A program made the position numbers and the translations under genes. From the IMG/VR virus record IMGVR_UViG_3300047329_000027, positions 1-44,716 of that record: a DNA stretch of 44,716 bases. One strand, given 5' to 3'. The notes beneath the pieces were generated by a model. It was given only the letters and a program-made list of their open reading frames with translations. It did no database searches and was not told where the DNA came from. This DNA is from a virus. Each line of letters starts with the position of its first letter. Within the stretch, counting starts at the first letter, position 1. Shown piece by piece: positions 8,531 through 26,275 of the stretch.

Positions 8531-8680
8531 TTAATGGCAATCGGCGGGGAAAAACGCGCGCGCGCGTCGGAGGCGGGGTATTGGTTTTCTCAATCGCGCT
8601 TGCCCTATCCATAAGTTTTTCCGTCAATCGCGCGTACACGGAAAATGGGGGTTTTAGGGTGCTAAAATGGGCATGCCAAA

Positions 8681-11156: not shown

Positions 11157-12147
11157 CCAGCGCGCGCAAACGGGCAGAGCGGGCGAGGATGCGGGCGTGA
11201 GGGAGCCGCTCGCCATAGATTTGTTCTGCGGTCTCGGCGGGTGGACGGCTGGCCTGCTGGCCGAGGGCTATTTCACCGTAGGCTTCGACATCGAGGCCCA
11301 CGCCTACGACGGCGAACGCTACCCCGGCCATCTGGTAATTCAGGACGTGCTGACGATCCACGGCTCGCAATTCAAGGACGCGGCGCTGATCGTCGCGAGC
11401 CCGCCGTGTCAGGAATATTCGTACATGGCGATGCCGTGGAGCCGCGCGAAGGCGAAGGCTGCGGCAATCCGGGCTGACGAAACCGGCGCCGAACTTGAAC
11501 GGCTCAACCGACTGTTCAACGCCTGCTTTCGCATCCAGCGCGAGGCGTGCGAAGCCGCGGGGCGACACATTCCGATGGTGGTCGAAAATGTTCGCGGCGC
11601 TCAGCCTTGGGTCGGGCGCGCGCGGTGGAACTTCGGGAGCTATTATTTGTGGGGCGACGTGCCGTTATTCATACCGGAGCCGAAGCGGCGAGCGGTAAAG
11701 CGACCGGGAATGAATTGGAGCGGATCGGACAAGCCCGTCTATGTCACCATTGCTTTTAACGATACGCGCGCCGTTCACCCGGACGATGGCAGCAAGATCC
11801 CCGGCTTCCGCTTCGACGGCTCGGGGAGGTCGTTTCAGAGCGCGGCGGTGGCGGAGGCAGCAGCGGCACGGGCTGCTGTTGATATTGGCGAGGAATATTC
11901 TCCCGGCGCTCGCTATCTCAGCATGGTCGCGGAGCGATCCGAGCGCCATCAAGCCGAAGGCATCAAGCAGGGCGGAACGCGGTTTCACGACGCAACGTCG
12001 GCGTCTCGCACATCCTCCTCCAAATCCCCCGCCCGCAAAGCCGCCAGCGCCCGCATCGCCAAAATCCCCGAAGTCCTCAGCCACTACGTAGCGGCCTATT
12101 ACCACCCCGAGCAGGAACGCCGCATGCAAGTGAGGGGAGGCGCTTGA
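11140..12147 (+). CDS. DNA (cytosine-5) methyltransferase, short phage type (MTase 1 of 4)
   Basis: Motif I DLFCGLGGW, motif IV ASPPCQEYS, motif VI MVVENVRG. I chose the in-frame ATG at 11140, which overlaps the ssb stop. GTG at 11197 is an alternative start. Confidence 0.75.
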   Translation: MRSRFDQRAQTGRAGEDAGVREPLAIDLFCGLGGWTAGLLAEGYFTVGFDIEAHAYDGERYPGHLVIQDVLTIHGSQFKDAALIVASPPCQEYSYMAMPWSRAKAKAAAIRADETGAELERLNRLFNACFRIQREACEAAGRHIPMVVENVRGAQPWVGRARWNFGSYYLWGDVPLFIPEPKRRAVKRPGMNWSGSDKPVYVTIAFNDTRAVHPDDGSKIPGFRFDGSGRSFQSAAVAEAAAARAAVDIGEEYSPGARYLSMVAERSERHQAEGIKQGGTRFHDATSASRTSSSKSPARKAASARIAKIPEVLSHYVAAYYHPEQERRMQVRGGA

Positions 12148-12678: not shown

Positions 12679-13293
12679 CTAGAGCCATGCCGCCCGCAAA
12701 TACCCCCGCGCCGCATCCTTCCTTTGAGCATCCGTCTTCGGCGCCGTGTACATCACCCGCCGACACGCGGGGCAATACGTCTGCCCCTCATCCGTCACCC
12801 CGCCGCAGAACAACGTGTCCGCCCCGTGGCCGCTGACGGGATAGGCGCACCGTTGACCACGCTCTACCAACGTGAGGGGCGGCCAGTCGCGGGGTTGCGT
12901 GTAACTCGGCATCACCGGATGCTCCACCAGAGCCGCCGACAACAGCTTTGGCGCTGACACTTTCGTCCTTATGGGAGCCGAGACCTTGTAGCGCTTGAAC
13001 AGGGCGTCAACCGCGTCGCGCGTGGTTCCGAACTTCTCGGCTATCGCGCCCGCAGCCATCCCCGCCGCGCGCATGGCCGATGCGGCTTGCAATTGTTCTG
13101 GCGACCATCGGCGCGTGTGCAGCGCTACACCCTCAGTTCGCGGCGCCGATATGCGGTGAATCCGACCGATCACCGAATTGCGCGAGCGTTTCATTTTCCG
13201 GCCGATCTGGCTCGCGCTGTAACCCTTGGCGGCGAGGGATTTCAGCTCGGCGTCTTCGTCTTCGGACCATCGGGTTCCGGTGGCGTGTTTCAT
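12679..13293 (-). CDS. gcrA: GcrA-like cell-cycle transcription regulator
   Basis: From the internal ATG at 13293: RWSEDEDAELKSLAAKGYSASQIGRKMKRSRNSVIGRIHRI matches the GcrA N-terminal DNA-binding signature. The C-terminus CAYPVSG...LFCGG...GQTYCPAC matches the GcrA C-terminal Cys pattern. Confidence 0.8.
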   Translation of the reverse strand: MKHATGTRWSEDEDAELKSLAAKGYSASQIGRKMKRSRNSVIGRIHRISAPRTEGVALHTRRWSPEQLQAASAMRAAGMAAGAIAEKFGTTRDAVDALFKRYKVSAPIRTKVSAPKLLSAALVEHPVMPSYTQPRDWPPLTLVERGQRCAYPVSGHGADTLFCGGVTDEGQTYCPACRRVMYTAPKTDAQRKDAARGYLRAAWL

Positions 13294-13294
13294 G

Positions 13295-13477
13295 CTATTT
13301 TCCCTTCTGCAATTCTTCAAGCTCGGCTTTCCACTTCGCCGAAAACTCCGCGCTGATTGCCAACGCCCGCTTGCCCTCGTCCGTGGCCGCCCATTTGGCG
13401 AACTTGCGCGCCGAACGCTGCATCTTGGTCTGATCGTCCTGCTTTTTCTTGAGGGCGTCGGGGCGGGTGTCACGCAT
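13295..13477 (-). CDS. Hypothetical basic protein
   Basis: 60-aa ORF packed tightly between the VRR-NUC and gcrA-like genes. Confidence 0.45.
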   Translation of the reverse strand: MRDTRPDALKKKQDDQTKMQRSARKFAKWAATDEGKRALAISAEFSAKWKAELEELQKGK

Positions 13478-13910
13478 GGTTGATCTCCTCCCGCCAAGCC
13501 CTCTGCGCCGGCGTTTCAGCGGCGAACGGGTTCGGCTTCAGCCTGACGCCCCAGCCAATCAGAGCCGCCTCTACCTCGTCAACCGACCTACACACGGCGT
13601 AAATCCCGAACGGCGCGCATTGGGCCTGAAACGCCTTCTGTTCGGCCGACATGGCGCCCCTCGCTTGGCCCTTCACGTCGGGACGTTTTAGCTCCACAAA
13701 TCTCGTGATGCCGTCCGCACACAAGAACGACCAGTCGGGCCAGCCGGCGCGCAAACCCCCCGCCGCCTTGGCTTTCATGCGGGTCATCGGGGTGAGCTTC
13801 ACGCCTGAGAGCGACGCGATGTAGAATGACCCATCGGGCATGCGCTCTTTCAAAAAGCGGTGAACCTTGACCTGCAAGGCTTGCTCGGGGGCGGCGTTCT
13901 TGCGGGTCAT
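13470..13910 (-). CDS. VRR-NUC domain nuclease
   Basis: 146 aa. The pattern QVKVHRFL...GWPDWSF...FVELKRP...LSAEQKAF fits the PD-(D/E)XK VRR-NUC layout (D-x-n-E-x-K). Confidence 0.7.
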   Translation of the reverse strand: MTRKNAAPEQALQVKVHRFLKERMPDGSFYIASLSGVKLTPMTRMKAKAAGGLRAGWPDWSFLCADGITRFVELKRPDVKGQARGAMSAEQKAFQAQCAPFGIYAVCRSVDEVEAALIGWGVRLKPNPFAAETPAQRAWREEINHA

Positions 13911-14050
13911 CGCGCCGCCATAATACGAGCAATCTCAGCCGCCACGGCAGGCGTCGGCGGCCGCAAGCCGGTGGCGAGTTCGCGCGCTTTCTGTTCGGTG
14001 TATCCGCGCCGCATGAGGGCGTTGGCTAGGGCGCGCTGATCAGGGGTCAT
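13907..14050 (-). CDS. Small ORF (47 aa), hypothetical
   Basis: My translation is MTPDQRALANALMRRGYTEQKARELATGLRPPTPAVAAEIARIMAAR. It overlaps both neighbours (TGATG upstream, ATGA downstream). Confidence 0.45.
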   Translation of the reverse strand: MTPDQRALANALMRRGYTEQKARELATGLRPPTPAVAAEIARIMAAR

Positions 14051-15114
14051 CACGCCGCCTCATCCTCATCCGCCACGGTTTCCGGCTCGGCGAACTCAAG
14101 CGCCTGTTCGGGGCGGTCCTGGCCGGCGCGGGCGATGTTTTTTACGGCCTGACGGTAGTATGAGGGTTTGAGTTCGATGCCGAGCCCGTACCGACCGCGC
14201 TCAACGGCGGCGTAAACCTCCGAACCGATGCCGAGGAATGGGGTGATCACAGTCTCGCCGGGCAGGCTCCACAAGTCGATACACCGCTCAATCACGTCAA
14301 GCTGGAGCGGCGAGATATGAACCTCGTCGGCCACGTCCCGACCGCCGCGATATTGCAGTGTGCGGCCTTGGCGGATGTCGGACCAGACGGGCGAGGCGTA
14401 ACGCTGCCAGATGAGGATAGATTTCCATTTCTCGTAGGTCCACGCGAATTTCTCGCTTTCGGGCGGACGCTCGCGCAACTGAGCCTCGTAAGCCGCCTCT
14501 GAGATATCAAGGCTCTCGTCGCCGCTCCAATGGTCCAGATGGCCCGCAATCGCCTCGTCATTGTCGCCGGGCTTCCTGAACGTCACCACGTAGTCGGCCA
14601 GCCCTTGGCCTGACAGCGAACTGTCCTTGACGATTTGCTTGTGGAGCAACCGCAGCGATTTCGTCCGCTGCTGAGCCACCACGGGATCTTTCCAGATGCA
14701 GACCTCGGAGTGTAGCAGCCAACCGGCCGCCTCGTAGTTGCGGATGACCTCGCCTCGGAAGTCTCGCATTCCTATGAAACCATCGCGGCCCTTGTTGCGG
14801 GGAAGCTGCATGACGTGGACTGAGTGAAGTCGGCCCGGACGTGTCACGCGCAGCAATTCGGCGATGATGAACTGATAGTGCGCGTCGAATTCGCCTCCCT
14901 CAGAATTGGAGACGTCGCGATCATAATTGCTGAATTTGTAGAGCCCGGAAAACGGCGGCGAGTGAATGCCGAAATGGATGCTGTCGCCGGGAATACCACG
15001 CAGTATTTCGCAACTGTCGCCCTCATAGATCGCGTACTTGTCAGTGATCTTCTGATCAACCGTCAGAACGCCATCGGGGCGCACGCCGGTTTTTTTCTTC
15101 ACGCTGCGAGCCAT
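14050..15114 (-). CDS. DNA methyltransferase, N4-cytosine/N6-adenine beta class (MTase 2 of 4)
   Basis: From the internal ATG at 15114. Motif IV is HSPPF, and the C-terminal motif I is TPFLGIGSEVYAAVERGRYGLGIE. This order is typical of N6_N4_Mtase (beta-class) enzymes. Confidence 0.8.
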   Translation of the reverse strand: MARSVKKKTGVRPDGVLTVDQKITDKYAIYEGDSCEILRGIPGDSIHFGIHSPPFSGLYKFSNYDRDVSNSEGGEFDAHYQFIIAELLRVTRPGRLHSVHVMQLPRNKGRDGFIGMRDFRGEVIRNYEAAGWLLHSEVCIWKDPVVAQQRTKSLRLLHKQIVKDSSLSGQGLADYVVTFRKPGDNDEAIAGHLDHWSGDESLDISEAAYEAQLRERPPESEKFAWTYEKWKSILIWQRYASPVWSDIRQGRTLQYRGGRDVADEVHISPLQLDVIERCIDLWSLPGETVITPFLGIGSEVYAAVERGRYGLGIELKPSYYRQAVKNIARAGQDRPEQALEFAEPETVADEDEAA

Positions 15115-16487
15115 GCGGGCAATTCCATCTGTTTCTGAGGGTTGTAATTCGGCGTATCGCGAACCTGGCCGCGCACCGCCAGCGATGAGATGTCGGAGGT
15201 ATGGCGCACCATCGCGGCCATCATCCGGTCGGCATCCGCTTCCTTGCGCCGAAGGTTCTGGATGACATTGCCTTCGGTTTCGGCGGCAATCATGTGAACG
15301 TCTACGGGGTGCCCTTGGCCGAACCTCCAGAAGCGGCGGACGGCCTGATAGTATTGCTCCCAACTGTCATTCAACCCCACAAAGCACGTCCAGTGACAGA
15401 CCTGGGCATTGACCCCGAACCCCATCATTGAACTTTTGGTGACCATCCGCGTGATTGACCCGTCGCAGAACCCGAGGATTTTCCGCTCCTTTTCGTCCTC
15501 GCTATCGGACCCGCGCAACTCCACGGCTCCGGGGATGGCCTTCGCCAGCGCCTCGCTCTCGGCGTTCAGACTGCACCACCAGAGCGCCGACTGACCGGCC
15601 GGCGGGGCAATCTCCGCAGCCTTGGCCACGCGCTCCTTAATCGTGTCCCGGCGCGCCGCCTGGCGCTCGGCCAGCGTCTCGGCTGGCATGGCGAACAGGA
15701 ACCCCGCCTCGTTCGCCGCAGCGATATCGACGCCGACCGTATGCTGATGCAGCCGCAGCGGTGGAAGGTCATAGCCGGTATCGTCATAGCCAAGGTCAGA
15801 CGGCTTCCGCAGCATCACCGACCAAGACGCCATCCAGCGCCAGAAGTCGTTTTCCGCATGGCCCTTCAGCCGCCATTTCTGAGTTTCGCCGCCATCGTGC
15901 GTAAAGAATGTGGCGAGCATGTCGGTGTAGGACATGACGCCGAGAAATTCGGCGTGGTTGCCTAGCTCCATGTAATCGTTCGGCGCTGGCGTTGCCGTTG
16001 CGGCAAGGCGGAAGGGGATTTGGGCGCACGCCTTGATCAAAGCCGTCCGATAGTGGCCGCTCTCGTTTTTCAATATTCCCGATTCATCGAGGATCACCCC
16101 TCCGAACTGCGACAAGTCGAAATGCTCAAGCTTCTGGTAGTTGGTGATATTCGTCCCAGCCATCACGTCGGCTTGCGTCCGAACCTGACGCGCGGCCATG
16201 CCGAACTTGTCGGCCTCCCGCACCATCTGAGCGGTGACGGCAAGCGGCGCGAGGTGCAGGATATCGCGCCCCGTCTCGCGATGGACGGCATCGGCCCACG
16301 CCAGCTCCATATAGCTCTTGCCGAGCCCAGTTCCGGCGAACAGCGCCGCCCGGCCACGACGCAGCGCCCACGCGACGATATCGCGCTGAAACGGGAACAT
16401 GCGCTCGGGCAGCGGCGGAATGTCCGTCAGGCCCGTTGACGGAGCGGTGATGGCCTTGCGGGCGAGAAATTCGGCGTAGGCGTCCAT
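15099..16487 (-). CDS. Superfamily-2 DEAD/SNF2-like helicase
   Basis: 462 aa. Motif I FAGTGLGKS, motif II ILDESG, and a helicase-C region near RRFWRFGQ. Its 3' end overlaps the methylase start by 16 nt. Confidence 0.75.
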   Translation of the reverse strand: MDAYAEFLARKAITAPSTGLTDIPPLPERMFPFQRDIVAWALRRGRAALFAGTGLGKSYMELAWADAVHRETGRDILHLAPLAVTAQMVREADKFGMAARQVRTQADVMAGTNITNYQKLEHFDLSQFGGVILDESGILKNESGHYRTALIKACAQIPFRLAATATPAPNDYMELGNHAEFLGVMSYTDMLATFFTHDGGETQKWRLKGHAENDFWRWMASWSVMLRKPSDLGYDDTGYDLPPLRLHQHTVGVDIAAANEAGFLFAMPAETLAERQAARRDTIKERVAKAAEIAPPAGQSALWWCSLNAESEALAKAIPGAVELRGSDSEDEKERKILGFCDGSITRMVTKSSMMGFGVNAQVCHWTCFVGLNDSWEQYYQAVRRFWRFGQGHPVDVHMIAAETEGNVIQNLRRKEADADRMMAAMVRHTSDISSLAVRGQVRDTPNYNPQKQMELPAWLAA

Positions 16488-17578: not shown

Positions 17579-17904
17579 AGGGCGGCCTCTAGGTGTTCGA
17601 CGATGGCGTCGATTTTTTCGGTTATGGCGGCGTCTTCCAGTTTTGCGGTGATGCGACCTAGGCCGGTCACGCAACCGGAAATCACACTGCGAAGCTGATC
17701 AAGTTCAGTTTCAATACGCTCAAGTTCGGACTGCGCCAGCACAAAGGCTGCGTCGTCCACTTCCTCCAGCGCATCAAGCGCCGGATCACCCCATTTCTTC
17801 GCCCAATACGCAAACTCGTCTAGCGATGTGCAGCGGTGCAATTCGTGCCGCGCCTGGATGACGTTTCCGTGGTCTGATAGATCGTTGAGTGTTGTGGTTA
17901 TCAC
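17575..17904 (-). CDS. Hypothetical acidic helical protein
   Basis: 109-aa ORF, overlapping-coupled to both neighbours. Confidence 0.5.
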   Translation of the reverse strand: MITTTLNDLSDHGNVIQARHELHRCTSLDEFAYWAKKWGDPALDALEEVDDAAFVLAQSELERIETELDQLRSVISGCVTGLGRITAKLEDAAITEKIDAIVEHLEAAL

Positions 17905-18101
17905 TAGTCCCTCCGCAGTCTGTAATCAGTGACGACGACTAACCCGAGCGCGTCCAAAATTTTCTGGCCAGGCTCACGATGACCGCGCAAAACGTCGCTC
18001 ACATACTGAGGCGACACGCCGATTTCTCGCGCCCAATCTTGCGCCAGTCCGACTTTCTTTATGCGCGCACGCATCAGGTTTCGCACCTGTTCGCTTGTCA
18101 T
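17904..18101 (-). CDS. XRE/Cro-like helix-turn-helix regulator
   Basis: 65 aa. GLAQDWAREIGVSPQYVSDVLRG is a typical HTH_3 core. It is the first gene after the divergent control region. Confidence 0.7.
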   Translation of the reverse strand: MTSEQVRNLMRARIKKVGLAQDWAREIGVSPQYVSDVLRGHREPGQKILDALGLVVVTDYRLRRD

Positions 18102-18142
18102 AGGCTACTCCGTTACGCGAACCCTATACGGCAAATTGTTTT

Positions 18143-18169
18143 AGTCAAGTCGCAGATTTGAGATTGACT
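18143..18169. promoter_or_regulatory. Divergent early control region: two TTGACT -35-like hexamers in inverted orientation, 15 bp apart
   Basis: agtcaa at 18143-18148 (TTGACT on the minus strand, then N16 and TAGGGT) and ttgact at 18164-18169 (then N17 and AAATGT). They lie in the 133-bp gap between the XRE gene and the first rightward gene. The -10 matches are weak. Confidence 0.35.
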
Positions 18170-18234
18170 CCATCCCCCATCGGCGCAAATGTGTCCTCAC
18201 AAACCGGCGACGGGAAACGCCGAGGGAGACTGAG

Positions 18235-18474
18235 ATGATCCTCACGATTGGCAAAGGCTACTATCCGGTTCGCGATTTCGCGGACGCCTCGGATATGTAT
18301 TCCACCGCCCGCACGAAGAAGTTCACGCGCACGGGGGGATCAAAGTTCCCCGAGGGCGTCATCACAGACGACGGCAAGCCGGTTGCTCGCGTAAGTCTGA
18401 ACGGCTGCGTATGGGCTCCGGGGCCGTGGGTTCCGGGTTTGGTTCCGATATATGATCCGAGGGTTTCGGCATGA
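18235..18474 (+). CDS. Hypothetical protein
   Basis: 79-aa ORF with the RBS gagggag 6 nt upstream. It is the first gene of the rightward early operon. Confidence 0.55.
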   Translation: MILTIGKGYYPVRDFADASDMYSTARTKKFTRTGGSKFPEGVITDDGKPVARVSLNGCVWAPGPWVPGLVPIYDPRVSA

Positions 18475-18767
18475 CCATCACGCCCCACATGGAAACCGTC
18501 CTCGCCAAGATCGACGCGGCGTTCAACCAGCCGCCGGTCGATAAGACCGAAGCGCTGCACAAGGCCATCGCGTTTTGGTCGCAGGACATCCGCCGCATCC
18601 GTGCTCAGATCGAAGCGCATACCGAATGGCGCGCGACCATGAACGCCAAGAACCCCGGATCGCTGGTGTTTTTCTCCGATGATCGCCCGGCCCTGCAACG
18701 CCAGATCGACCGGCTGAGCGCCCTGATCACAGCGGCGGAAAGCAAGTTGGCGGAGGGGGTGTCGTGA
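18471..18767 (+). CDS. Hypothetical protein
   Basis: 98-aa ORF with an ATGA overlap onto the previous gene. Confidence 0.55.
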   Translation: MTITPHMETVLAKIDAAFNQPPVDKTEALHKAIAFWSQDIRRIRAQIEAHTEWRATMNAKNPGSLVFFSDDRPALQRQIDRLSALITAAESKLAEGVS

Positions 18768-18853
18768 CCGCCCTCCGCATGATCCCGTCCCTGTTCGCGC
18801 TCGCCATCTGCGGCGTCGTGCTGCTGTTCGTCAGCTTTGGAGGTGGCCTGTGA
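18764..18853 (+). CDS. Micro-ORF (29 aa) encoding a single transmembrane helix
   Basis: My translation is V-TALRMIPSLFALAICGVVLLFVSFGGGL. There are GTGA overlaps at both ends. Confidence 0.3.
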   Translation: MTALRMIPSLFALAICGVVLLFVSFGGGL

Positions 18854-19065
18854 GCCAGACGATGCGCCGTGACTTGGCCGAACACGAAGATGGGTTGCGT
18901 GACCTGTTCAACGCCAGCACCCGTCTCGTTCAGGTCATCGATATGGTCGGCGTCTTGCGTCTTTCGACGGCGGTCGAGCTGGGCCAGATCAGTTGGTATC
19001 ACAAGTGCAACGATGCGGTCGCTTGGGTGAACGCCGAGTTGGACAAATGGGAGAGGAAGACGTGA
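18850..19065 (+). CDS. Hypothetical protein
   Basis: 71-aa ORF, overlap-coupled to its neighbours. Confidence 0.5.
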   Translation: MSQTMRRDLAEHEDGLRDLFNASTRLVQVIDMVGVLRLSTAVELGQISWYHKCNDAVAWVNAELDKWERKT

Positions 19066-19172
19066 AGCGAGCCACCGACTACGTAGCCCTGTCTCGGGTG
19101 AGCGACGGTCAAATCTGGGCTGCATCAGCTTCGATGATACAGAGGAGAGCCTGTGATGGCTGCAAAAACTAA
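19062..19172 (+). CDS. Micro-ORF (36 aa), hypothetical
   Basis: The GTG start overlaps the previous stop (GTGA). The ORF fills the gap before the pentapeptide gene and overlaps its start by 17 nt. Confidence 0.25.
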
Positions 19173-19947
19173 GACCGCGCCCGTCGAAGATACGACCGAA
19201 GACTACATCATCCGCAACAGCTTTTCCGGCGAGCCCCAAGTCACCGTCAAAATTCAGTCGGTGAACGAGCCTGAGGCTTTGAAGCTGGGCCGGGCGATCA
19301 TGGAAGCTATTAAGACCGGGGCCAATCTCGCCGGGGCCGATCTCGCCGGGGCCAATCTCGCCGGGGCCAATCTCGCCAGAGCCAATCTCGACGGGGCCAA
19401 TCTCGCCGGGGCCGATCTCGCCGGGGCCAATCTCGCCGGGGCCAATCTCGCCAGGGCCAATCTCGACGGGGCCGATCTCGACGGGGCCAATCTCGACGGG
19501 GCCAATCTCAAGGGGGCCAATCTCGCCGGGGCCAATCTCCACGGGGCCAATCTCGCCAGGGCCTATCTCGCCAGGGCCAATCTCGACGGGGCCTATCTCG
19601 CCAGGGCCAATCTCGACGGGGCCAATCTCGCCAGGGCCAATCTCGACGGGGCCAATCTCGCCAGGGCCAATCTCGACGGGGCCTATCTCGCCGGGGCCAA
19701 TCTCAAGGGGGCCAAAATTGGCGAGCGTACCGTTTTCACCCTCAAGGGCCGCGCGACGCGCTCTGACGGCTACGAGTTTCTACTGTTCAAAACTGAGGAC
19801 GGCGAAGTCATCCGCGCCGGGTGTCGCACCTTCACCCTGGCCGAGTTCCGCACCCATACCGACCGATACTGCAGCGCAGGCAAGAGCGCCGAGACGCTGC
19901 GCATCCTCAATTTCCTTGAAGCCCAAATGAACGGGGAGGTGTGGTGA
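19156..19947 (+). CDS. Pentapeptide-repeat protein (about 26 A(N/D/Y)L(A/D/K/H)(G/R) repeats) with unique N- and C-terminal domains
   Basis: ATG at 19156 lies behind the RBS agaggagag. The translation is ...[30 protein letters not shown].... The central residue is L and the i-2 residue is A, as in the canonical A(D/N)LXX pentapeptide family. Confidence 0.85.
19321..19710 (+). repeat. Tandem array of 26 in-phase 15-bp units (consensus GCCAATCTCGCCGGG)
   Basis: Every 60-nt sequence line from 19321 to 19680 starts in phase with gcc(a/t)atctc. There are four units per line plus two units in the next line, and a degenerate 27th unit at 19711-19725. Confidence 0.95.
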
Positions 19948-20105
19948 TGTACCGCTCAGAATACCGCCAATGGCGCGACGAGCTAGCCGGTGAGCGCCCG
20001 TCCCAGGGCTGGCGTCTCGCTGGCATGGCGATGCAATTCGCGTCCGTCGTGTCCGTGATTTGGGCCGCTTATGCGGCTGGGCGTCATTTTGGGTGGTGGG
20101 GATGA
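19947..20105 (+). CDS. Small ORF (52 aa) with a C-terminal hydrophobic helix
   Basis: My translation is [52 protein letters not shown]. Its ATG overlaps the TGA of the pentapeptide gene (TGATG). Confidence 0.4.
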   Translation: MYRSEYRQWRDELAGERPSQGWRLAGMAMQFASVVSVIWAAYAAGRHFGWWG

Positions 20106-20109
20106 ACAC

Positions 20110-20331
20110 ATGATCTTCATCATCATCTGGATAACCGCCGCTCTAATTATCACAATGGTTGATGCGGCCGTCCAAGACGAAGCAGGCCTTGGTCGCGCAT
20201 TGGTGTGGTTACTTTGGCCCTTTATGCTTCCAGCGGCCTTAGTCGTCCTGACGTTTGCAGCGGCGCAATGGGTGGGGCTCTATGCCCGGAAGATTTGGGC
20301 CGCCCTCGCAGCACAGGAGGGGCAGAGGTGA
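20110..20331 (+). CDS. Small membrane protein (two predicted TM helices)
   Basis: From the internal ATG at 20110: MIFIIIWITAALIITMV...LLWPFMLPAALVVLTFAAAQWV. Confidence 0.5.
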   Translation: MIFIIIWITAALIITMVDAAVQDEAGLGRALVWLLWPFMLPAALVVLTFAAAQWVGLYARKIWAALAAQEGQR

Positions 20332-20522
20332 GCCTTCAGAAGCTAAAGCCGTGCCCGAAGTGCGGCGGTCAGGTCAACGTCTGGACGTATGAAAGCGGCT
20401 GGCGTCGCGCTGAGTGTTACTCCTGCGACTACATCGCCAAGCCCGCTGAAAACCTTGTGCGCGCCTGCCGAAATCACAACGAGCGTGTTCGCGCAGCACA
20501 GGAGGGGAGCGAGAGATCATGA
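20328..20522 (+). CDS. Lar-like zinc-ribbon protein (restriction-alleviation family)
   Basis: From GTG at 20328 (GTGA overlap): LKPCPKCGGQ...AECYSCDY...ACRNHNER matches the Lar_restr_allev pattern (LKPCPFCGG ... C-x2-C ... WN-R) as I recall it. Confidence 0.55.
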   Translation: MSLQKLKPCPKCGGQVNVWTYESGWRRAECYSCDYIAKPAENLVRACRNHNERVRAAQEGSERS

Positions 20523-20842
20523 GCCGAGATCCGCGCATTGCAGAGGCCGCCGCAAAGGCCGCCGAGTATTACAAGAACCGCCAGCACGGCATGAGCGCGT
20601 TCTGCGCCAAAGCAGCTATTCGCGCCTATCTTGAAGCTGTAAGGCCAGAAATGGCGATGGTCCCCGTTGAGCCGACTGAGCAAATGCTTCGCGCTGGATT
20701 CGCAGCCATGAATGAGACACCGAGCAGCCAGTGGAAACGGATGAAGGCCGAAGGTGTCACGCCCCGGCGCATGTTCGACGTCAAGATGGCTCCGCGCTGG
20801 CGAGCGATGATCGACGCCGCCCTTTCAGAGCGGAGGGAGTAG
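20519..20842 (+). CDS. Hypothetical protein (PTExM...W..MIDAAL domain)
   Basis: 107-aa ORF with an ATGA overlap. Its C-terminal half resembles that of 25874..26275. Confidence 0.55.
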   Translation: MSRDPRIAEAAAKAAEYYKNRQHGMSAFCAKAAIRAYLEAVRPEMAMVPVEPTEQMLRAGFAAMNETPSSQWKRMKAEGVTPRRMFDVKMAPRWRAMIDAALSERRE

Positions 20843-21016
20843 ATGGGCCTATCCGCAGAACAAGCCGCCGCCGCAATCCGCGCCACCATCGCCCGCGTGC
20901 TCGGCATCCCGCCGTTATTCGTGAGCGAGGAAATATGCGAGCGCGAGGTTGAGCGCGAGATGCATCGAGGGCCTCGGCTCACCGTGGATGGCGTGCGTAT
21001 TCAGTCCACGGACTAG
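20843..21016 (+). CDS. Small ORF (57 aa), hypothetical
   Basis: My translation is MGLSAEQAAAAIRATIARVLGIPPLFVSEEICEREVEREMHRGPRLTVDGVRIQSTD. It starts 1 nt after the previous stop. Confidence 0.4.
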   Translation: MGLSAEQAAAAIRATIARVLGIPPLFVSEEICEREVEREMHRGPRLTVDGVRIQSTD

Positions 21017-21073
21017 ACCGACTTGTTGACGGGCGCTTGGAAAAGGGCGTTGATGATTTTGGAGGGAAATATC

Positions 21074-21754
21074 ATGGGCATAAAATATTACCGCGACCTG
21101 ATTCAGGGTTCGCCCGAATGGCTTGAGGCCAGACGCGGGCTTCTCGCCACGTCAGAGATGAAACTGATCCTGACGCCGACGCTCAAGATCGCCAGCAATG
21201 ATAAGGAGCGCGCGCACCTTTACGAACTGCTGGCCCAACGCATCAGCGGGTACGTTGAGCCGTCCTATATTGGCGACGACATGTTGCGCGGGATGGAAAG
21301 CGAAATCCTCGCGCGCCAACGCTATGCCGAACGGTACGCGCCGGTTGAGGAAATTGGGTTCATCACAAACGACAAATGGGGCTTCAAGATCGGCTACAGC
21401 CCGGATGGCTTGGTCGGGAAAACCGGCGCCATCGAGGTCAAAGGTCCGCGCCAGAAATCGCATGTTGAGACCATTCTAAACGGCGTTGTCCCGGTCGAGC
21501 ACGTCTTACAGATCCAGACCGGAATGATGGTCGCCGAATTGGAGTGGATCGACTTCATTTCTTACCATGGCGGTTTGCCCATGGTGACGATCAGGGCTTA
21601 TCCCGATCCGGTGATTCAGTCCGCCATTGTGGAAGCCGCAACGTCATTTGAGGCCAAATTGGGGGAGAAGCTGCGCGAGTGGAAAAAGATTTTGGCCGGC
21701 GAAGCGCGCCTCATTCCAACCGAACGCGTGATTGAACAGGAGATGTTCGTATGA
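21074..21754 (+). CDS. YqaJ-like (lambda Exo-type) recombination exonuclease
   Basis: ATG at 21074 behind the RBS ggaggg. The pattern GSPEWLEARRGLLATSEM...GYSPDGLV...GAIEVKGP follows the YqaJ PD-(D/E)XK pattern. Confidence 0.75.
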   Translation: MGIKYYRDLIQGSPEWLEARRGLLATSEMKLILTPTLKIASNDKERAHLYELLAQRISGYVEPSYIGDDMLRGMESEILARQRYAERYAPVEEIGFITNDKWGFKIGYSPDGLVGKTGAIEVKGPRQKSHVETILNGVVPVEHVLQIQTGMMVAELEWIDFISYHGGLPMVTIRAYPDPVIQSAIVEAATSFEAKLGEKLREWKKILAGEARLIPTERVIEQEMFV

Positions 21755-22551
21755 GCGAGCAACAATCACTGGTCGCTTTGGCCGATAACCCTGTCATAGT
21801 TTTGACGGACGCCGAGAAGTTCGACCGCTTCTATGAAGAAATGAAGCGCGAAAGCGCCAAAGCAATGAAGCCCCGCTTGCTCGATCTGTTCTGTTGCGCT
21901 GGCGGCGCGGGCGTCGGCTACGCCAGGGCCGGTTTCGAGGTCGTGGGCGTCGATATTGATCCGCAGCCCCGTTATCCGTTCACCTTCGTCCAAGCCGACG
22001 CGCTCGCCCTCGATCCCGAATGGGTGGCGTCGTTCGACGCAATCCACGCCTCGCCGCCGTGCCAATCCTATTCGGACCTAGCGAAGCGCAACAACAACGC
22101 GGACGCATGGCCTCGCCTCATTGATCCGACCCGCGATCTACTGGTCCGGTCAGGCCGCCCGTGGGTGATCGAGAATGTGGACGGCGCGCCGTTGCGCGAT
22201 CCCGTCATCCTTTGCGGAACGATGTTCCCCGGCTTGCGGGTGCTCCGCCACCGCCTGTTTGAGGCGAATTTCCCCATCATCGCACCGCCTCACGGCAAAC
22301 ACCCGAAAGTGCATACCTTCGACAGGCGAAAGTCTCACTTCGGCAAAACCGACGATATGCGCGATTTCGTCCAAGTCACGGGGGGCGGCAACTGCACGAT
22401 CGCCGCCGCGAAAGACGCGATGGGAATCGACTGGATGACCAAGAACGAGATGAACGAGTCCATCCCGCCCGCCTATACCCAACTGATCGGCGAACAGCTC
22501 TTGGCCCATATCAGCGCCGTGGATGAACCTCCGATGCGGCGCCGGGCCTGA
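21751..22551 (+). CDS. DNA (cytosine-5) methyltransferase, short type (MTase 3 of 4)
   Basis: Motif I LLDLFCCAGGAGVGY, motif IV HASPPCQSYS, motif VI WVIENV, and a C-terminal NESIPPAYTQLIG (motif X-like). Confidence 0.8.
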   Translation: MSEQQSLVALADNPVIVLTDAEKFDRFYEEMKRESAKAMKPRLLDLFCCAGGAGVGYARAGFEVVGVDIDPQPRYPFTFVQADALALDPEWVASFDAIHASPPCQSYSDLAKRNNNADAWPRLIDPTRDLLVRSGRPWVIENVDGAPLRDPVILCGTMFPGLRVLRHRLFEANFPIIAPPHGKHPKVHTFDRRKSHFGKTDDMRDFVQVTGGGNCTIAAAKDAMGIDWMTKNEMNESIPPAYTQLIGEQLLAHISAVDEPPMRRRA

Positions 22552-22552
22552 C

Positions 22553-22978
22553 GTGAGCGCCAAGGACCTCATTCGCCAGTTTTTCCTGGCGAACCTCGGA
22601 ACAGTCGTCAATTCGGGCCAGATTCGCGATGCGTCGGGCGGCATCACCGAATGGGCTAGACGCGTCAGAGAGCTTCGCGACGAAGAGGGATGGCCCATCC
22701 TCTCGCACAACGACTCCGCCGCATTGAAGCCCGGCGAATATCTCCTCAAGGAAACGCCGCCGCCGAAAAAGGACGTGTCGTTCTCGCGCGCCATATCGAC
22801 GAAACTGAGAGCCGAAGTCCTCGACCGTAACGGCTTCACCTGCCAAATGTGCGGCCTCACACCGGGGGATATTGACCCCTCGACCAACCGCAAGGTTCGC
22901 CTTCACCTGGGCCACATCACCGGGTCGATAGCCTCCTGCACGGCGCCGTGGGCCGCCGGATCACCTATGCGGAGCTGA
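22553..22978 (+). CDS. Winged-helix plus HNH endonuclease-like protein, truncated inside the HNH motif (probably inactive)
   Basis: From GTG at 22553. The N-terminus ITEWARRVRELRDEEGWPILSH is typical of HNH restriction-type enzymes next to Dcm genes. The C-terminus RNGFTCQMCG...VRLHLGHI breaks off where D-H-I-x-P...GG...N...C-x2-C is expected, and ends in unrelated sequence. Confidence 0.55.
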   Translation: MSAKDLIRQFFLANLGTVVNSGQIRDASGGITEWARRVRELRDEEGWPILSHNDSAALKPGEYLLKETPPPKKDVSFSRAISTKLRAEVLDRNGFTCQMCGLTPGDIDPSTNRKVRLHLGHITGSIASCTAPWAAGSPMRS

Positions 22979-22982
22979 CGGC

Positions 22983-24248
22983 ATGAGCGAGGGACTCGAA
23001 GAACTGACAGCCCTGGTCAAGGTCGTGATGTCATATAGGCCGGACACTAAAGCGGCTAAGCGACCAAGGATCGAGGCCATCGCACCGCCCAAACTGACCG
23101 CCATTGACCTGTTCTGCGGCGCTGGCGGATTGTCTGAGGGCTTCCGGCAGGCGGGCTTTCATGTGCTTGTCGGGCAGGACTATGACGCGGCAGCTGGCCG
23201 GACGTTCGGGGCCACGCACCCGGAGGCCACCTTCATCGGCGGTCGTATCCAAGACGTGACGCCCGCCCAAATCCTGAAAGATGCCGGTAAGCGTCGGGGC
23301 GAGATTGACGTGATCGTCGGCGGCCCCCCCTGTCAGGGCTATTCGGTCTACAATCATCAGCGCGGCGAGAGCGATCCGCGCGCGGGCCTGTTCCGTGAAT
23401 ATCTGCGGATCGTGGAGGGTATCTATCCCCGCTGGCTGGTCATGGAAAACGTGACGGGGATCACGTCCATCGCCGGCGGCGGCGTTGTCCGAGAGATTTA
23501 TGCGGGGATGGAAAGTCTCGGCTATCGCGTCGATATGCGCGTCCTCAAGGCGGAAGAATACGGCGTCCCCCAGGAGCGCCGCCGGGTCGTGTTTATCGCC
23601 ACGCGAGGGGACGCGCCCATCCTTTTCCCCGAACCTACCCACGGCCCCGGCCTTGCGCCTTTCGTGACTGTTTGGGATGCGATCTCTGACCTGCCGAAGA
23701 TTGAAAACGGGGCCAAGGCTGGCGTTCTGGCGTATGCCACCGAACCCCGGAACGATTACCAGCGCACCCTTCGCGGCAACGCCGTCGCCGTGACCAATCA
23801 CTCAGCGCCGCGCCTCGCCAAGATTAACGAGCAACGGATGCTGCACATCCCGCCGGGCGGATCGTGGCGGGATATTCCCTTCGAGCTTCTGCCCGCCGGG
23901 ATGAAGAAGGCCAAGCGAAGCGACCACACAAAGCGGTATGGTCGCCCTCGCAAGACGGACCTCGCCTGCACGATCCTGACCAAGTGCGACGTGCATTGGG
24001 GCGCTTATATCCATCCCGTTCAGAACCGGGCGTTGACCGTGCGCGAGGCCGCCCGCCTACAGTCGTTCCCTGACTCGTTCGCCTTCCAGGGCAGCGGCAC
24101 GGAACAATATGTTCAAGTCGGCAACGCCGTGCCGCCGCTCCTGGGCCGTCGCGTTGCGGAGGCCCTTCTAATCGCAGATAGCAAGGCAGAGGCTTCGCAC
24201 AAAAGCAGCCGCGCCGGAGAGCGATTGGAAATGGTCGTTGCCGTTTAA
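22983..24248 (+). CDS. DNA (cytosine-5) methyltransferase, full-length type II (MTase 4 of 4; partner of the NotI-like endonuclease)
   Basis: 421 aa with all canonical motifs: I DLFCGAGGLSEGF, IV GGPPCQGYS, VI MENV, VIII QERRRV, IX REAARLQSFPD, X GNAVPPLL. Confidence 0.9.
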   Translation: MSEGLEELTALVKVVMSYRPDTKAAKRPRIEAIAPPKLTAIDLFCGAGGLSEGFRQAGFHVLVGQDYDAAAGRTFGATHPEATFIGGRIQDVTPAQILKDAGKRRGEIDVIVGGPPCQGYSVYNHQRGESDPRAGLFREYLRIVEGIYPRWLVMENVTGITSIAGGGVVREIYAGMESLGYRVDMRVLKAEEYGVPQERRRVVFIATRGDAPILFPEPTHGPGLAPFVTVWDAISDLPKIENGAKAGVLAYATEPRNDYQRTLRGNAVAVTNHSAPRLAKINEQRMLHIPPGGSWRDIPFELLPAGMKKAKRSDHTKRYGRPRKTDLACTILTKCDVHWGAYIHPVQNRALTVREAARLQSFPDSFAFQGSGTEQYVQVGNAVPPLLGRRVAEALLIADSKAEASHKSSRAGERLEMVVAV

Positions 24249-25116
24249 CCCCGAGACCATCATCGGAGAGGTTTTGGGCGAACGGGCGCTCAAGGGCGCG
24301 GACCCCGCGTCTAAGGCGTTCATGTGCCCCTACATTGATGCGACATGCCCGAAGCGCAGCACGAACTTGCCAGGCATTGAGTCCTATCCGGTTTGTTCGA
24401 TTTGGAAGGGCAACCCGATCGCTCCCGCACCCGGCGTCGATCTTATCTGTGTCTGCCCGAAGCGGTTTCACGCCATCGACTTCCTTGCCGACGTGATCGC
24501 GTATTGTTGGCCGGGGGAGCCTCCCGCCCATCCGCGCATCGCGCCTGAAGTTAAGATGGAGGGTTTCGGCAACGTCGATTTTGTGATCGCCGACGTGGGC
24601 GAAGACGGCCAGATCGGGCAATTTCTGTCTGTTGAATTGCAGGCCATCGACATCACCGGATCGGTCTTTCCGGCCTATCAGGCGTTGCGGGCCGGGGCCG
24701 ACCTTGAACGCAGACCGACCTACGGCCTGAATTGGGATAACGTCTATAAGCGCTACATCACCCAGCTCATCCGCAAGGGCTACTTTCACCATCACTGGAA
24801 AACCAAAATCGTCGCGGTGATCCAGGAGCAGATTTATCGGAACATTGTAGAGCGCGCGGCCTTCATGCGGACGCCGGACGTGAAGGGCGCCGACGTGAAT
24901 ATCATCTTCATGACCTACCGCTTCGACCATGATCCTGACCGGCCCGGCCAATTCAGGCCGGCCCTAACCACCGTCGAAGGCACCAGCCACGCCAGCCTTT
25001 CGCAAGCCATCCTCTACAAAGAAGCTCCTACCCGCGACGCCTTCTGCGCTCGCATTTCCGCCTCGATGAAGCGGGCGGACGCGGGGGCGATCACCCTAGC
25101 CAAATTAGGACTTTAG
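24238..25116 (+). CDS. Type II restriction endonuclease, NotI family (candidate)
   Basis: The TTG start overlaps the methylase stop by 11 nt. The Cys cluster CPYIDATCPK...PVCSIW...CVCPKRF, the core NVDFVIADVG...SVELQAIDITGS and NWDNVYKRYITQ parallel the Fe-Cys4 plus D...E-x-Q layout I recall for R.NotI. Confidence 0.6.
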   Translation: MPFNPETIIGEVLGERALKGADPASKAFMCPYIDATCPKRSTNLPGIESYPVCSIWKGNPIAPAPGVDLICVCPKRFHAIDFLADVIAYCWPGEPPAHPRIAPEVKMEGFGNVDFVIADVGEDGQIGQFLSVELQAIDITGSVFPAYQALRAGADLERRPTYGLNWDNVYKRYITQLIRKGYFHHHWKTKIVAVIQEQIYRNIVERAAFMRTPDVKGADVNIIFMTYRFDHDPDRPGQFRPALTTVEGTSHASLSQAILYKEAPTRDAFCARISASMKRADAGAITLAKLGL

Positions 25117-25199
25117 GGAGTTAACGCGATAATTCCCAAAAAGATCGTCCTTGCCATCGTTGCGGGTGAAATTCCCGCCGTCACTCTGAGGTTTTGAAC

Positions 25200-25877
25200 A
25201 TGAACGACATGAGCCCCGTAATCGTCGCCAAGAGCGACCAAATGAACGCCGATGACCTCATGGGCTCGCCGCGAACCATCCGCATCACCAAGGTTGATAT
25301 TACCGCGGGCAATGAACAACCCGTCAACGTCTATTTCGAAGGCGACGACGGCAAACCCTGGCGCCCGTGCAAGTCGATGTCGCGCGTCATGGTCGCTCTG
25401 TGGGGGCCGGATGCGAAACAGTACGCCGGCAAGAGCTTGACGCTGTTCCGTGATCCGAAGGTGAAATGGGGCGGCCTAGAGGTTGGCGGTATCCGTATCA
25501 GCCACGCCTCGCACATTGATGGTGATACGGTTGTGATTGTTAACTCGTCAAAGGGGAAAAAGGCGGCTTACAAGGTGGCGCCGCTCAAGGCTCCGGTTGC
25601 GAAATTGGTTCAGCAGCCAGCACCCGCACCCGAACCCGATCTAGACGCGCCCATAGGCGCGCCGTCCGACATCCCCGGCGACCTCGCCGACTTCGCCGAC
25701 GCCCTAGAACTTGAAATCGAGCACGTCACGGACGGCAAGGCGTTTGGCGCCAAGTTCAACGCCATGATGCGCGATGATCCGTTGTGGAAGGCGCTGAGGA
25801 ACGACCACGGCGAAGCTGGCCAGCGTCGGGCGGCGGATTTGAAGGCGAAGGCTACAGCGAAGATTAGGGGGGCGTGA
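25200..25877 (+). CDS. Hypothetical conserved phage protein
   Basis: ATG at 25200 behind gagg. The N-domain NADDLMGSPRTIRITKV...KPWRPCKSMSRVMVALWG...GKSLTLFRDPKVKWGGLEVGGIRI resembles an uncharacterised family I have seen in many phages. Confidence 0.55.
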   Translation: MNDMSPVIVAKSDQMNADDLMGSPRTIRITKVDITAGNEQPVNVYFEGDDGKPWRPCKSMSRVMVALWGPDAKQYAGKSLTLFRDPKVKWGGLEVGGIRISHASHIDGDTVVIVNSSKGKKAAYKVAPLKAPVAKLVQQPAPAPEPDLDAPIGAPSDIPGDLADFADALELEIEHVTDGKAFGAKFNAMMRDDPLWKALRNDHGEAGQRRAADLKAKATAKIRGA

Positions 25878-26275
25878 TGAGCGAGATGGTTGAACGAGTG
25901 GCGCTAGCTTATGAGACCGAGCGCAAACTTTGGACCCAGAAATTCACCGCAATCGCGAATGGTATTCAGGTCGAAATGTGTCGAGATGGGCGCGCTATTG
26001 GATCGCCGTGGAGTTTGCATGTTTTTGAAGTCAGCGGTTGGCGTGCGTGGCAATCTTTAAGGGACGAGGCTTCAGCCCGCGCCGCCATCGCTGCCATGCG
26101 CGAGCCAACTGAGGAAATGGCGCGCGCCATGGCCGAAGCGTGCATGACGCGCGAGGAGGCGCGCAATAAGCATCTCATGGCGATGGTGGACTATAAAACC
26201 ATTGCGGCATCTTGGCGGGGCGGAATAGACGCCGCCCTTAAAGCCGCCCCATCAACGCCAGCACCACGAGAATAA
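25874..26275 (+). CDS. Hypothetical protein (PTEEM...W..IDAAL domain)
   Basis: 133-aa ORF with an ATGA overlap. It is the last gene of the rightward operon. Confidence 0.5.
   Translation: MMSEMVERVALAYETERKLWTQKFTAIANGIQVEMCRDGRAIGSPWSLHVFEVSGWRAWQSLRDEASARAAIAAMREPTEEMARAMAEACMTREEARNKHLMAMVDYKTIAASWRGGIDAALKAAPSTPAPRE

Follow-up and report, generated by a model that had tools for sequence, protein, structure and literature searches.

This stretch of viral DNA raises the question of whether a tightly packed run of rightward genes is one functional system or an assembly of parts with separate histories. A preliminary description took it to be an undescribed system, that is a counter-defence and offence module, selected as a coordinated whole and with its timing set by a single early transcript, in which a pentapeptide DNA mimic and a Lar protein would blunt restriction, methylases would mark the phage and a nuclease would destroy unmarked DNA. 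The window (the whole stretch analysed, 44,716 nt) also holds the surroundings of these genes, and the run is best explained as the distal part of a rightward early/middle operon (18235-26275) in a tailed phage of about 44.7 kb, the host of which is probably an alphaproteobacterium. It is probable that the run is a three-layer mosaic and not one system, the layers being accessory ORFs, a recombination pair and inserted restriction-modification (R-M) DNA.

The operon and its small accessory genes

Sixteen consecutive plus-strand ORFs, defined by ORF scan and junction analysis, make up the operon (Table 1), with gaps of −29 to +87 nt between them and GC3 values of 0.58-0.83 (0.64-0.83 except for the last ORF), which fits real coding. 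ORF scan and domain searches bear out the gene content and order listed before, as well as the co-directional, tight packing of 19153-25116; of the block bounds first given (19062-25116) the packed run from 19153 holds, but the operon starts at 18235 and not at 19062. A sigma-70 consensus scan found no promoter-like site on the plus strand and no match within the divergent intergenic region, and terminator-like sites were not enriched over shuffled sequence (10 observed against 10.0 expected). The close packing of co-directional genes, among which terminator predictions do not exceed background, does favour a coordinated module. The divergent region, across from which lies a leftward replication operon (an HTH_3 gene at 17904-18101, DnaN and a helicase), contains the inverted repeat AGTCAA-N15-TTGACT and is presumed to be a control region with a promoter or operator role. 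The three opening ORFs gave no Pfam family at E≤0.001 and no PHROG match, a single marginal match to SlyX (E 0.0099) apart.

Table 1. Features of the rightward operon and its upstream flank (positions in the window)
Feature	Position	Strand	Basis or context
Divergent intergenic region	18102..18234	.	between leftward replication operon and rightward operon
Three small ORFs opening the operon	18235-18474, 18471-18767, 18850-19065	+	GC3 0.69-0.83
Pentapeptide-repeat protein	19153..19947	+	Pfam PF00805, E 1e-38
52-aa ORF, one hydrophobic segment	19947..20105	+	read directly
73-aa ORF, two hydrophobic segments	20110..20331	+	GRAVY 1.15
Cys4 zinc-ribbon protein, 64 aa, weakly Lar-like	20328..20522	+	CxxC-x17-CxxC
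Basic protein, 107 aa	20519..20842	+	C-terminal ~55-aa domain
57-aa ORF, no assigned function	20843..21016	+	ORF scan
YqaJ / lambda-exonuclease-family nuclease	21074..21754 (alternative start 21023)	+	Pfam YqaJ, E 3e-12
M1, compact C5 cytosine methylase, now solitary	21751..22551	+	motifs I, IV, VI, VIII
R1 remnant, HNH type II restriction enzyme	22523..22918	+	PADLOC REase_II, E 1e-13
IS1595-family DDE transposase remnant, last 22 codons	22918..22983	+	tblastn with L092 transposase
M2, full-length C5 cytosine methylase, putative transposon cargo	22983..24248	+	Pfam, E 7e-65
R2, NotI-family restriction endonuclease	24238..25116	+	Pfam NotI, E 2e-10
Right terminal inverted repeat, IS1595-type element	25113..25137	+	TTAGGGAGTTAACGCGATAATTCCC
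YqaJ partner	25200..25877	+	phrog_11517, E 1e-50
Last operon ORF, 133 aa	25874..26275	+	ORF scan, Pfam/PHROG search, junction analysis

The pentapeptide-repeat protein is built of 27 tandem A(D/N)LxG units between short N- and C-terminal caps, the gene showing 15-nt periodic DNA repeats; gp021 of Caulobacter phage RapA is 51% identical, and the gene of its closest relative among phages lies between those for DNA polymerase and helicase. Like the DNA mimics Qnr, MfpA and McbG it is a long pentapeptide-repeat protein, but it scores far under every Qnr/MfpA equivalog cut-off and, in contrast to these and to the anti-restriction mimics Ocr and ArdA, is near-neutral (pI 5.8, net charge −2) and not strongly acidic. 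The repeat family to which it was first assigned stands, whereas a tie to restriction finds no support here; its charge and a nearest named relative in a replication module both speak against a coordinated module. So does the failure of the pentapeptide proteins McbG and QnrB to inhibit BREX in one published test (PMC7261183).

The two tiny membrane ORFs that follow were correctly recognised by their hydrophobic segments, and an independent assembly also calls both as genes; the first has no family match in Pfam or PHROG searches. For the next protein the zinc ribbon is sound but the restriction-alleviation label is not: the "Lar-like" identity is weak because the profile scores fall under the curated cut-offs (Pfam Lar_restr_allev E 7e-4, 20.2 bits against 28.6; TIGR03655 16.6 bits against 39.6), the match to phrog_599 "Lar-like" having E 2e-5, and no relatives were found in IMG/VR. 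The C-terminal domain of the basic protein is conserved across about 30 clusters of proteins. None of the small upstream ORFs has a relative in 80 related contigs, two having none in IMG/VR, and 19153-21016 reads as a series of small accessory ORFs specific to this lineage, rare orphans that would act independently of the R-M genes, although they could still cooperate functionally with the methylases while not having co-evolved with them.

A probable recombination pair split by inserted DNA

The YqaJ nuclease (phrog_149, E 2e-23) has 80 homologues in IMG/VR at 52-65% identity, and in 77 of the 80 contigs a homologue of the gene at 25200-25877 lies directly downstream, the gap being no more than 63 nt in 60 of the 77 (median 12 nt). 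In the window this gap is 3443 nt, with 3.4 kb of R-M DNA between the two genes. Twelve contigs with gaps of 347-935 nt carry one extra gene there, which where identifiable is a DnaQ-like exonuclease or an HNH_3/NUMOD4/AP2 homing endonuclease, and the interval appears to be a recurrent insertion hot spot. The partner gene, lying just past the block as first described, had been overlooked. It has no Pfam family, and its predicted fold, an N-terminal beta-barrel and a C-terminal helical bundle (AF2 pLDDT 88), gave only weak OB-fold matches (E 0.02-0.6). As in lambda Red and Rac RecET, the YqaJ gene of nearly every relative is followed closely by a single conserved partner gene; in contrast to those systems, the partner (phrog_11517) cannot be recognised as a RecT, Redbeta, ERF or Rad52 protein, its barrel being weakly OB-like, and we infer an annealing role for it. 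On this gene order YqaJ would be half of a phage recombination pair and no part of a defence programme, which again counts against a coordinated module.

Two cassettes and how they may have been joined

The first of the inserted elements is the M1-R1 pair. M1 keeps motifs I, IV (PPCQ), VI (ENV) and VIII intact, shares 88% amino acid identity with the methylase of L084 and has a dN/dS of 0.07. R1, already called a decayed HNH nuclease, is dead: its REase_II match spans profile positions 23-152 of 218, and it is colinear with homologues of 185-191 aa through residue 132 only, after which 19 unrelated codons lead to a stop at 22978, so that DKSLGG...CSTCNQGAKN and the second half of the HNH motif are gone. 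The contig L084 comes from an unrelated phage and has both genes intact (methylase 231 aa, HNH nuclease 191 aa); it is 79% identical in nucleotides to 21880-22919, and the homology stops at 22919. L087-L091 also have this pair, in one case accompanied by Vsr and a resolvase and in one case chromosomal, and M1-R1 would derive from a widespread mobile two-gene cassette of small C5 methylase and HNH nuclease. R-M decay in phages usually ends in solitary methylases, and Bacillus phages carry multispecific C5 methylases for self-protection. M1, which belongs to an early operon and has no nuclease partner left, is comparable to the solitary self-protection methylases of phages (for example PHROG 363 and 116), but here the junction shows directly that it came from an R-M pair disabled not long ago.

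The second element begins where that homology ends. The remnant at the junction corresponds to residues 284-305 of the L092 transposase (91% identity), the rest being deleted, and the IS1595 family was assigned by Pfam on the intact transposase. The remnant and the terminal inverted repeat had escaped the preliminary description. Three loci (L092, L093 and L094) show the complete order of left repeat, IS1595 transposase (305 aa), M2 (421 aa, adjoining the transposase), R2 (292 aa) and right repeat, and 22918-25138 matches them at 81.4% identity over 2226 nt; neither a left inverted repeat nor an intact transposase was found in the window. M2 and R2 are adjacent in L082 and L083 too. M2 matches PADLOC MTase_II (E 2e-124) and, in a PDB sequence search, DNMT1 and M.HaeIII, and its 3' end overlaps the R2 start by 11 nt. 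M2-R2 would be the cargo of a crippled IS1595-family transposon.

R2 scores 40.7 bits against Pfam NotI (PF12183; cut-off 22), and some of its 634 homologues are named "NotI family restriction endonuclease" by NCBI. It resembles that family in a conserved four-Cys cluster, a D...ExQ motif and its pairing with a C5 methylase, but differs in having no direct sequence match to PDB NotI chains and no structural match: when its predicted structure (pLDDT 81.6) was searched with Foldseek, the NotI crystal structure was not among the matches, the best of which was PaqCI (E 0.09), and so the NotI assignment is that of the Pfam profile alone. The window holds only 2 GCGGCCGC sites. This lack of confirmation of a NotI-like fold, the prior destruction of R1 and the transposase, and solitary methylases being the usual end state would fit the R-M DNA being a decaying hitch-hiker, with R2 inactive or silenced and the methylases alone, or nothing, mattering to the phage. 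We regard that as unlikely, since R2 keeps all the family-invariant residues (C30, C53, C73, D114, E133 and Q135, with the near-invariant C37), has the length and overlapping start of its homologues, and shows a dN/dS of 0.09 against an 85%-identical homologue, equal to that of its methylase. Purifying selection has acted on all four R-M genes (M1, the R1 remnant, M2 and R2; dN/dS 0.05-0.09).

Both cassettes are mobile elsewhere and both junctions are legible in the DNA, from the end-points of which an order of events can be proposed, the closest backbone relatives being only about 65% identical. The compact type II cassette M1-R1 would have entered between YqaJ and its partner; an IS1595-family transposon carrying M2 and R2 would then have inserted at the 3' end of that cassette or slightly past it; and a deletion would have joined R1 codon 132 to transposase codon 284, inactivating the two genes and stranding M2-R2 with the right inverted repeat only. 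Mobile type II R-M cassettes that insert into operon-like clusters, are prophage-borne or are IS-flanked have been described (Furuta, Abe & Kobayashi 2010, PMC2853133), and that paper cites Siguier et al. 2009 for IS1595-family elements with passenger genes. The window resembles those cases in methylase-nuclease pairs moving among unrelated genomes, in a transposase with terminal inverted repeats beside the pair and in insertion between operon genes. It differs in that two cassettes are nested inside a phage recombination module, and in that the second lost its transposase and left repeat by the deletion that also truncated the nuclease of the first.

Consequences for the phage

The genome has four methylases in total, two of them outside the 19153-25116 block, and avoids many 6-bp palindromes, and so restriction pressure seems real. 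This, with both methylases of the block and R2 looking intact, would suit a coordinated module. However, no more than one of the pentapeptide, methylase and nuclease parts occurs in any of the 80 related contigs, the R-M part consists of two mobile cassettes in a nested arrangement in which the transposase and one nuclease are dead, and the Lar call falls under curated cut-offs; a coordinated, undescribed programme finds no support in these comparisons and is very unlikely.

Were the phage temperate, M2-R2 could instead be a prophage defence of the lysogen (superinfection exclusion) and no infection-time weapon. There is ample documentation of prophage-borne R-M systems (PMC2853133), the operon faces the divergent gene of a small HTH_3 protein as in a lysogeny switch, and bacterial chromosomes of 2.9-3.4 Mb carry homologues of the partner of YqaJ. 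Against this, Pfam scans that covered most ORFs of 110 aa or more turned up neither an integrase nor a large repressor, and R-M genes inside a replication/recombination operon would need a promoter of their own to escape repression in a lysogen, making prophage defence distinctly unlikely.

Under the mosaic reading, M1 and M2 with the two methylases elsewhere would methylate phage DNA during infection and thereby protect it against R2 and against any host enzymes that share their specificity. R2 itself would cut unmethylated DNA of the host chromosome or of co-infecting rivals, and it may make loss of the cassette difficult. On balance the phage would probably gain additional self-methylation and a single nuclease that looks intact, and to this extent the earlier proposal of self-methylation with a probably active nuclease was reasonable, given two intact-looking C5 methylases and the conservation of R2. 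Chloroviruses degrade host DNA with virus-encoded R-M. The phage likewise carries a methylase and a nuclease by which its own DNA would be protected and unmodified DNA cut. It differs in the transposon origin of the cassette, which suggests that selfish spread came first, and the locus would be a mosaic of an ordinary sort, assembled from known kinds of element, whose evolutionary history is neat.

YqaJ, its partner and the landing site between them

The middle of the rightward operon, described preliminarily as a coordinated island of counter-defence and offence genes, owes its island look to a nested insertion at a hot spot, with unrelated accessory ORFs upstream. The YqaJ exonuclease included in that description is solid (Pfam domain match of 47.5 bits against a cut-off of 22), and its surroundings were compared in 80 viral contigs carrying a YqaJ homologue at 52-65% identity, the window's proteins being sought nearby in each. 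Only one of these proteins is conserved there, termed here the partner, which is encoded near YqaJ in 77 of the 80 contigs, and two of the three lacking it end about 0.6 kb or less from the YqaJ match. The partner lies directly downstream of YqaJ, across a gap of 63 nt or less in 60 contigs (median 12 nt, maximum 935 nt), and so YqaJ belongs with its partner in a conserved pair rather than in a defence programme. Defence-type components of the block fare differently: none of the 80 contigs has two or more of them, and this comparison does not support a co-evolved anti-defence island.

Within the window the gap between YqaJ and the partner has grown to 3443 nt and is filled by a C5 methylase (M1), the remnant of an HNH enzyme (R1), a second C5 methylase (M2) and a NotI-like endonuclease (R2). 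Smaller gains at the same place are seen in 12 of the 80 contigs, where the gap is 347-935 nt and the extra DNA is a single gene, which where identifiable encodes an RNase_T exonuclease of DnaQ type or a homing endonuclease of the HNH_3 kind that also carries NUMOD4 or AP2 domains. The YqaJ-partner junction is thus a recurrent landing site in related phages.

The partner (phrog_11517) belongs to no Pfam family, and its predicted structure (pLDDT 88) is a beta-barrel with a helical bundle, the barrel having only a weak OB-fold likeness with sub-significant matches in PDB structure searches. Searching BFVD by structure returned uncharacterised phage proteins only. Where an exonuclease and annealing module would have a RecT, Redbeta, ERF, Rad52 or Gp2.5 protein beside the nuclease, YqaJ has a conserved neighbour with a possible annealing role, no Pfam assignment and weak OB-fold matches. 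Its homologues, over 6,700 of them, come from metagenomes and from Sphingomonadales, Caulobacterales and Rhodopila genomes, and together they may form a new family of recombination accessory proteins.

Features of the window referred to in the text
Feature	Position	Strand	Remarks
Portal	4937-6487		head end of contig
Terminase	6484-7941		head end of contig
Mu-F-like gene			head end of contig
DUF3383 protein, baseplate hub, Baseplate_J, lysozyme			tail/baseplate genes, opposite end from head genes
Second IS1595-type transposase fragment	8435-8538	-	zinc-ribbon region, residues ~47-82
SSB	within 10704-12147	+	Pfam 3e-29; C-terminal DDEIPF tail; followed by third C5 methylase-like gene
Third C5 methylase-like gene	~11140-12147	+	FCGLGG, PPCQ and ENV motifs; Pfam 9e-8
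GcrA-like cell-cycle regulator homologue	12679-13497	-	
N6/N4 DNA methylase	14050-15363	-	near GcrA-like gene
Leftward operon			small HTH_3 protein, DnaN, helicase, N6/N4 methylase, GcrA-like regulator, D5-type primase
Divergent intergenic region	18102-18234		133 nt
Inverted repeat	18138-18170		AGTCAA-N15-TTGACT, beside HTH_3 gene
Rightward operon	18235-26275	+	16 ORFs
Pentapeptide gene	19153-19947		
Small ORFs	19947-21016		
M1	21751-22551		N-terminal extension at 21751-21864
R1 remnant	22523-22918		
Transposase remnant	22918-22983		last 22 codons
M2	22983-24248		
R2	24238-25116		
Right inverted repeat	25113-25137		
Partner	25200-25877		phrog_11517
Last ORF of rightward operon	25874-26275		

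Two restriction-modification cassettes, one upon the other

The first cassette consists of M1 and R1. M1 is short and aligns throughout with intact relatives, its catalytic motifs all being kept, and so the first C5 methylase stands as called. R1 is an HNH-kind type II restriction enzyme (PADLOC 1e-13) whose more than 7,000 homologues are 185-191 aa long, and the window copy matches these to residue 132 of about 190 before running into 19 unrelated codons. It was rightly called a decayed nuclease, as its HNH motif now lacks the second half, and M1 and R1 do not form a pair with an intact endonuclease. The missing 3' half was sought elsewhere in the window and in other frames and is absent. An intact version is found in L084, an unrelated phage contig with 79% nucleotide identity to window 21880-22919, where a 231-aa methylase overlaps an intact 191-aa HNH enzyme. 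The same methylase and HNH pair occurs elsewhere beside a resolvase with Vsr, and also in a bacterial chromosome, and is a widespread mobile restriction-modification (R-M) cassette.

Two IS1595-family transposase genes flank the cassette in L084 (7020-12540), 1.4 kb upstream and 1 kb downstream, and are 69% and 36% identical to the transposase adjacent to M2 and R2 in other contigs; no convincing inverted repeats were found around the cassette there. M1 of the window also carries an N-terminal extension of 35-38 residues that is missing from all compared homologues and whose GC3 is lower, at 0.63. Translation may really begin at the ATG at 21865, or the extra residues may be what remains of displaced sequence. 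In a search for the origin of the 38 residues, two contigs gave only weak matches, at E 5e-4, in DNA upstream of YqaJ, too weak to interpret.

The second cassette is the cargo of an IS1595-type element. Three contigs (L092-L094) match window 22918-25138 with 81.4% identity across 2226 nt, and the intact unit, present in L092 and L093, runs from a 25-nt inverted repeat through an IS1595-family DDE transposase (305 aa, Pfam 5e-46), M2 (421 aa) and R2 (292 aa) to a second inverted repeat. What the window keeps of the transposase is 91% identical to it and lies in a different frame from R1; the right inverted repeat is retained and a left one is absent anywhere in the window. A functional IS1595 transposon was considered and rejected on these grounds, and the copy in the window is a remnant that cannot move. 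A further IS1595-type transposase fragment has the terminase region on one side and the D5 primase gene on the other; its amino acid identity is about 62-71% and its nucleotide identity to L084 is 83%, and so IS1595 elements have hit this genome more than once.

The cargo itself has fared better. M2, the second C5 methylase of the preliminary description, is full length (Pfam 7e-65, covering positions 2-322 of 324) and is paired with R2 also in L082, L083 and L092-L094, as a type II R-M gene pair. R2 was called NotI-like, which holds at the level of sequence profiles, with a Pfam NotI match above cut-off and all of the residues invariant among 25 sequences, its own included (C30, C53, C73, D114, E133 and Q135), as well as the near-invariant C37, so that the Cys cluster is kept. 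A Foldseek search with the R2 model (pLDDT 81.6) found no NotI chain, the best match being at E 0.09, and a NotI fold is not claimed. PDB sequence searches with R2 and its small alignment, with the HNH remnant and with the partner alignment gave nothing useful.

Homology to cassette 1 ends at 22919 and that to cassette 2 begins at 22918, limits from which it follows that a single deletion, or a single illegitimate recombination, brought codon 284 of the transposase up against codon 132 of R1. Values of dN/dS against relatives are 0.05-0.09 for all four R-M genes, the R1 remnant included, from which it follows that the truncation is recent relative to the divergence from those relatives, and that R2 is as constrained as its methylase. 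The history is one of nested insertion, leaving a dead R1, a dead transposase and an intact-looking M1, M2 and R2.

Upstream ORFs and the genome around the block

Upstream of YqaJ the pentapeptide-repeat protein is beyond doubt, its 27 tandem A(D/N)LXX repeats scoring 130.9 bits against the PF00805 cut-off of 20.2 (E 1e-38). The proposal that it is a DNA mimic is not supported: an Ocr/ArdA-like mimic would have a strongly acidic surface, or a Qnr/MfpA equivalog a curated match, and this protein is near-neutral (pI 5.8, net charge -2) and reaches 38-55 bits with NCBIfam Qnr/MfpA models having cut-offs of 240-500. In one published study the pentapeptide proteins McbG and QnrB did not inhibit BREX (PMC7261183). 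Caulobacter phage RapA has the closest named relative (gp021, 51% identity), its gene flanked by those for DNA polymerase I and a helicase, and pentapeptide proteins occur near YqaJ in 3 of the 80 contigs, at differing positions and in every case without a methylase. At the DNA level the gene is a 15-nt tandem repeat (19228-19812), in which many 18-mers are 89-100% identical, suggesting that the repeats were recently expanded or homogenised; long spurious ORFs (for example 18727-19542) are seen on the opposite strand.

The two small ORFs that follow were described as membrane proteins, and their hydrophobicity is confirmed. Lar-like restriction alleviation was proposed for the next, and a small Cys4 zinc ribbon (CPKCG-x17-CYSC, read from the translation) is indeed present, but it scores below both curated Lar models (PF14354, 20.2 bits against 28.6; TIGR03655, 16.6 against 39.6), other support being limited to PHROG 599, labelled 'Lar-like', at E 2e-5. 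All the small ORFs at 19947-21016 lack a detectable relative in the 80 YqaJ contigs, and neither the zinc ribbon nor the 107-aa ORF has relatives in IMG/VR. About 30 clusters related to the 107-aa ORF, all unannotated, were found in a library of 1.8 billion representatives, with context given by one phage-like contig where the neighbours are small unannotated ORFs only.

The two operons diverge from a common intergenic region, from which transcription of the rightward operon would start, and an inverted repeat there is a possible operator. Gaps between rightward-operon ORFs are -29 to +87 nt and their GC3 is 0.58-0.83 (0.64-0.83 excluding the last). A consensus scan of this operon gave no promoter-like site on the + strand, and terminator-like sites no more frequent than in shuffled sequence; an Rfam search gave nothing above background. 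An independent assembly has the identical gene set and calls. Among deposited phages there is no near match, distant matches spanning single genes only. The window takes in a complete contig of 44,716 bp. Head genes at one end of the contig and tail and baseplate genes at the other suggest a circularly permuted genome, and since no recognisable integrase was found among the ORFs scanned the phage is possibly virulent.

Methylase genes number four in all. The SSB and third C5 methylase-like genes lie on the + strand inside an otherwise leftward arm, and the pairing of an N6/N4 methylase with a GcrA-like regulator is a hint that the phage interferes with methylation control of the alphaproteobacterial cell cycle. 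Many 6-bp palindromes are strongly avoided across the whole window (observed against Markov expectation: GGATCC 0/14.7, TCCGGA 0/13.2, GTCGAC 1/18.4, CCGCGG 5/48.9), and so the genome has been shaped by restriction. Depletion on the same measure is mild or nil for CGGCCG, GCCGGC and GGCGCC. Site avoidance does not give the specificity of R2, as CGGCCG and GCGGCCGC are not specifically depleted, unlike many other 6-bp palindromes.

Possible function and meaning of the block

As to function, M1 and M2 would methylate phage DNA, besides the third C5 and the N6/N4 methylases; M2 would shield it from R2, which would cut the DNA of the host or of rivals where it is unmethylated and may make losing the cassette costly. 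An ambitious reading has a possibly virulent phage, one without a recognisable integrase, domesticate a NotI-family R-M pair brought in by a transposon and use it as a weapon during infection. Its own DNA would be shielded by four methylases while the nuclease destroyed the chromosome of the host or the DNA of rival phages, and at least one orphan upstream ORF (pentapeptide, zinc ribbon, 107-aa or 57-aa) would act as a new inhibitor of host defence; taken whole, this is improbable.

Solitary methylases are commonplace in phages. R-M genes on phages and prophages are documented, as are R-M pairs that are IS-flanked or in transposon-like units and cases where R-M genes have inserted into operon-like clusters (PMC2853133). 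With each of these kinds already known the block is a fresh instance of them, and there is no evidence here of a new defence, counter-defence or coordinated system.

The partner family, with its thousands of members and no Pfam entry, merits study and is a better lead for new biology than the block itself. The value of the block is in an unusually legible history, a clean example of how a phage accessory region is assembled: a recombination gene pair served as the landing pad, one selfish R-M cassette landed on another, and a single deletion left the first as a solitary methylase and the second unable to move. Islands read from the gene order of one genome may be accidents of nested insertion, a caution for guilt-by-association scans that seek anti-defence loci.
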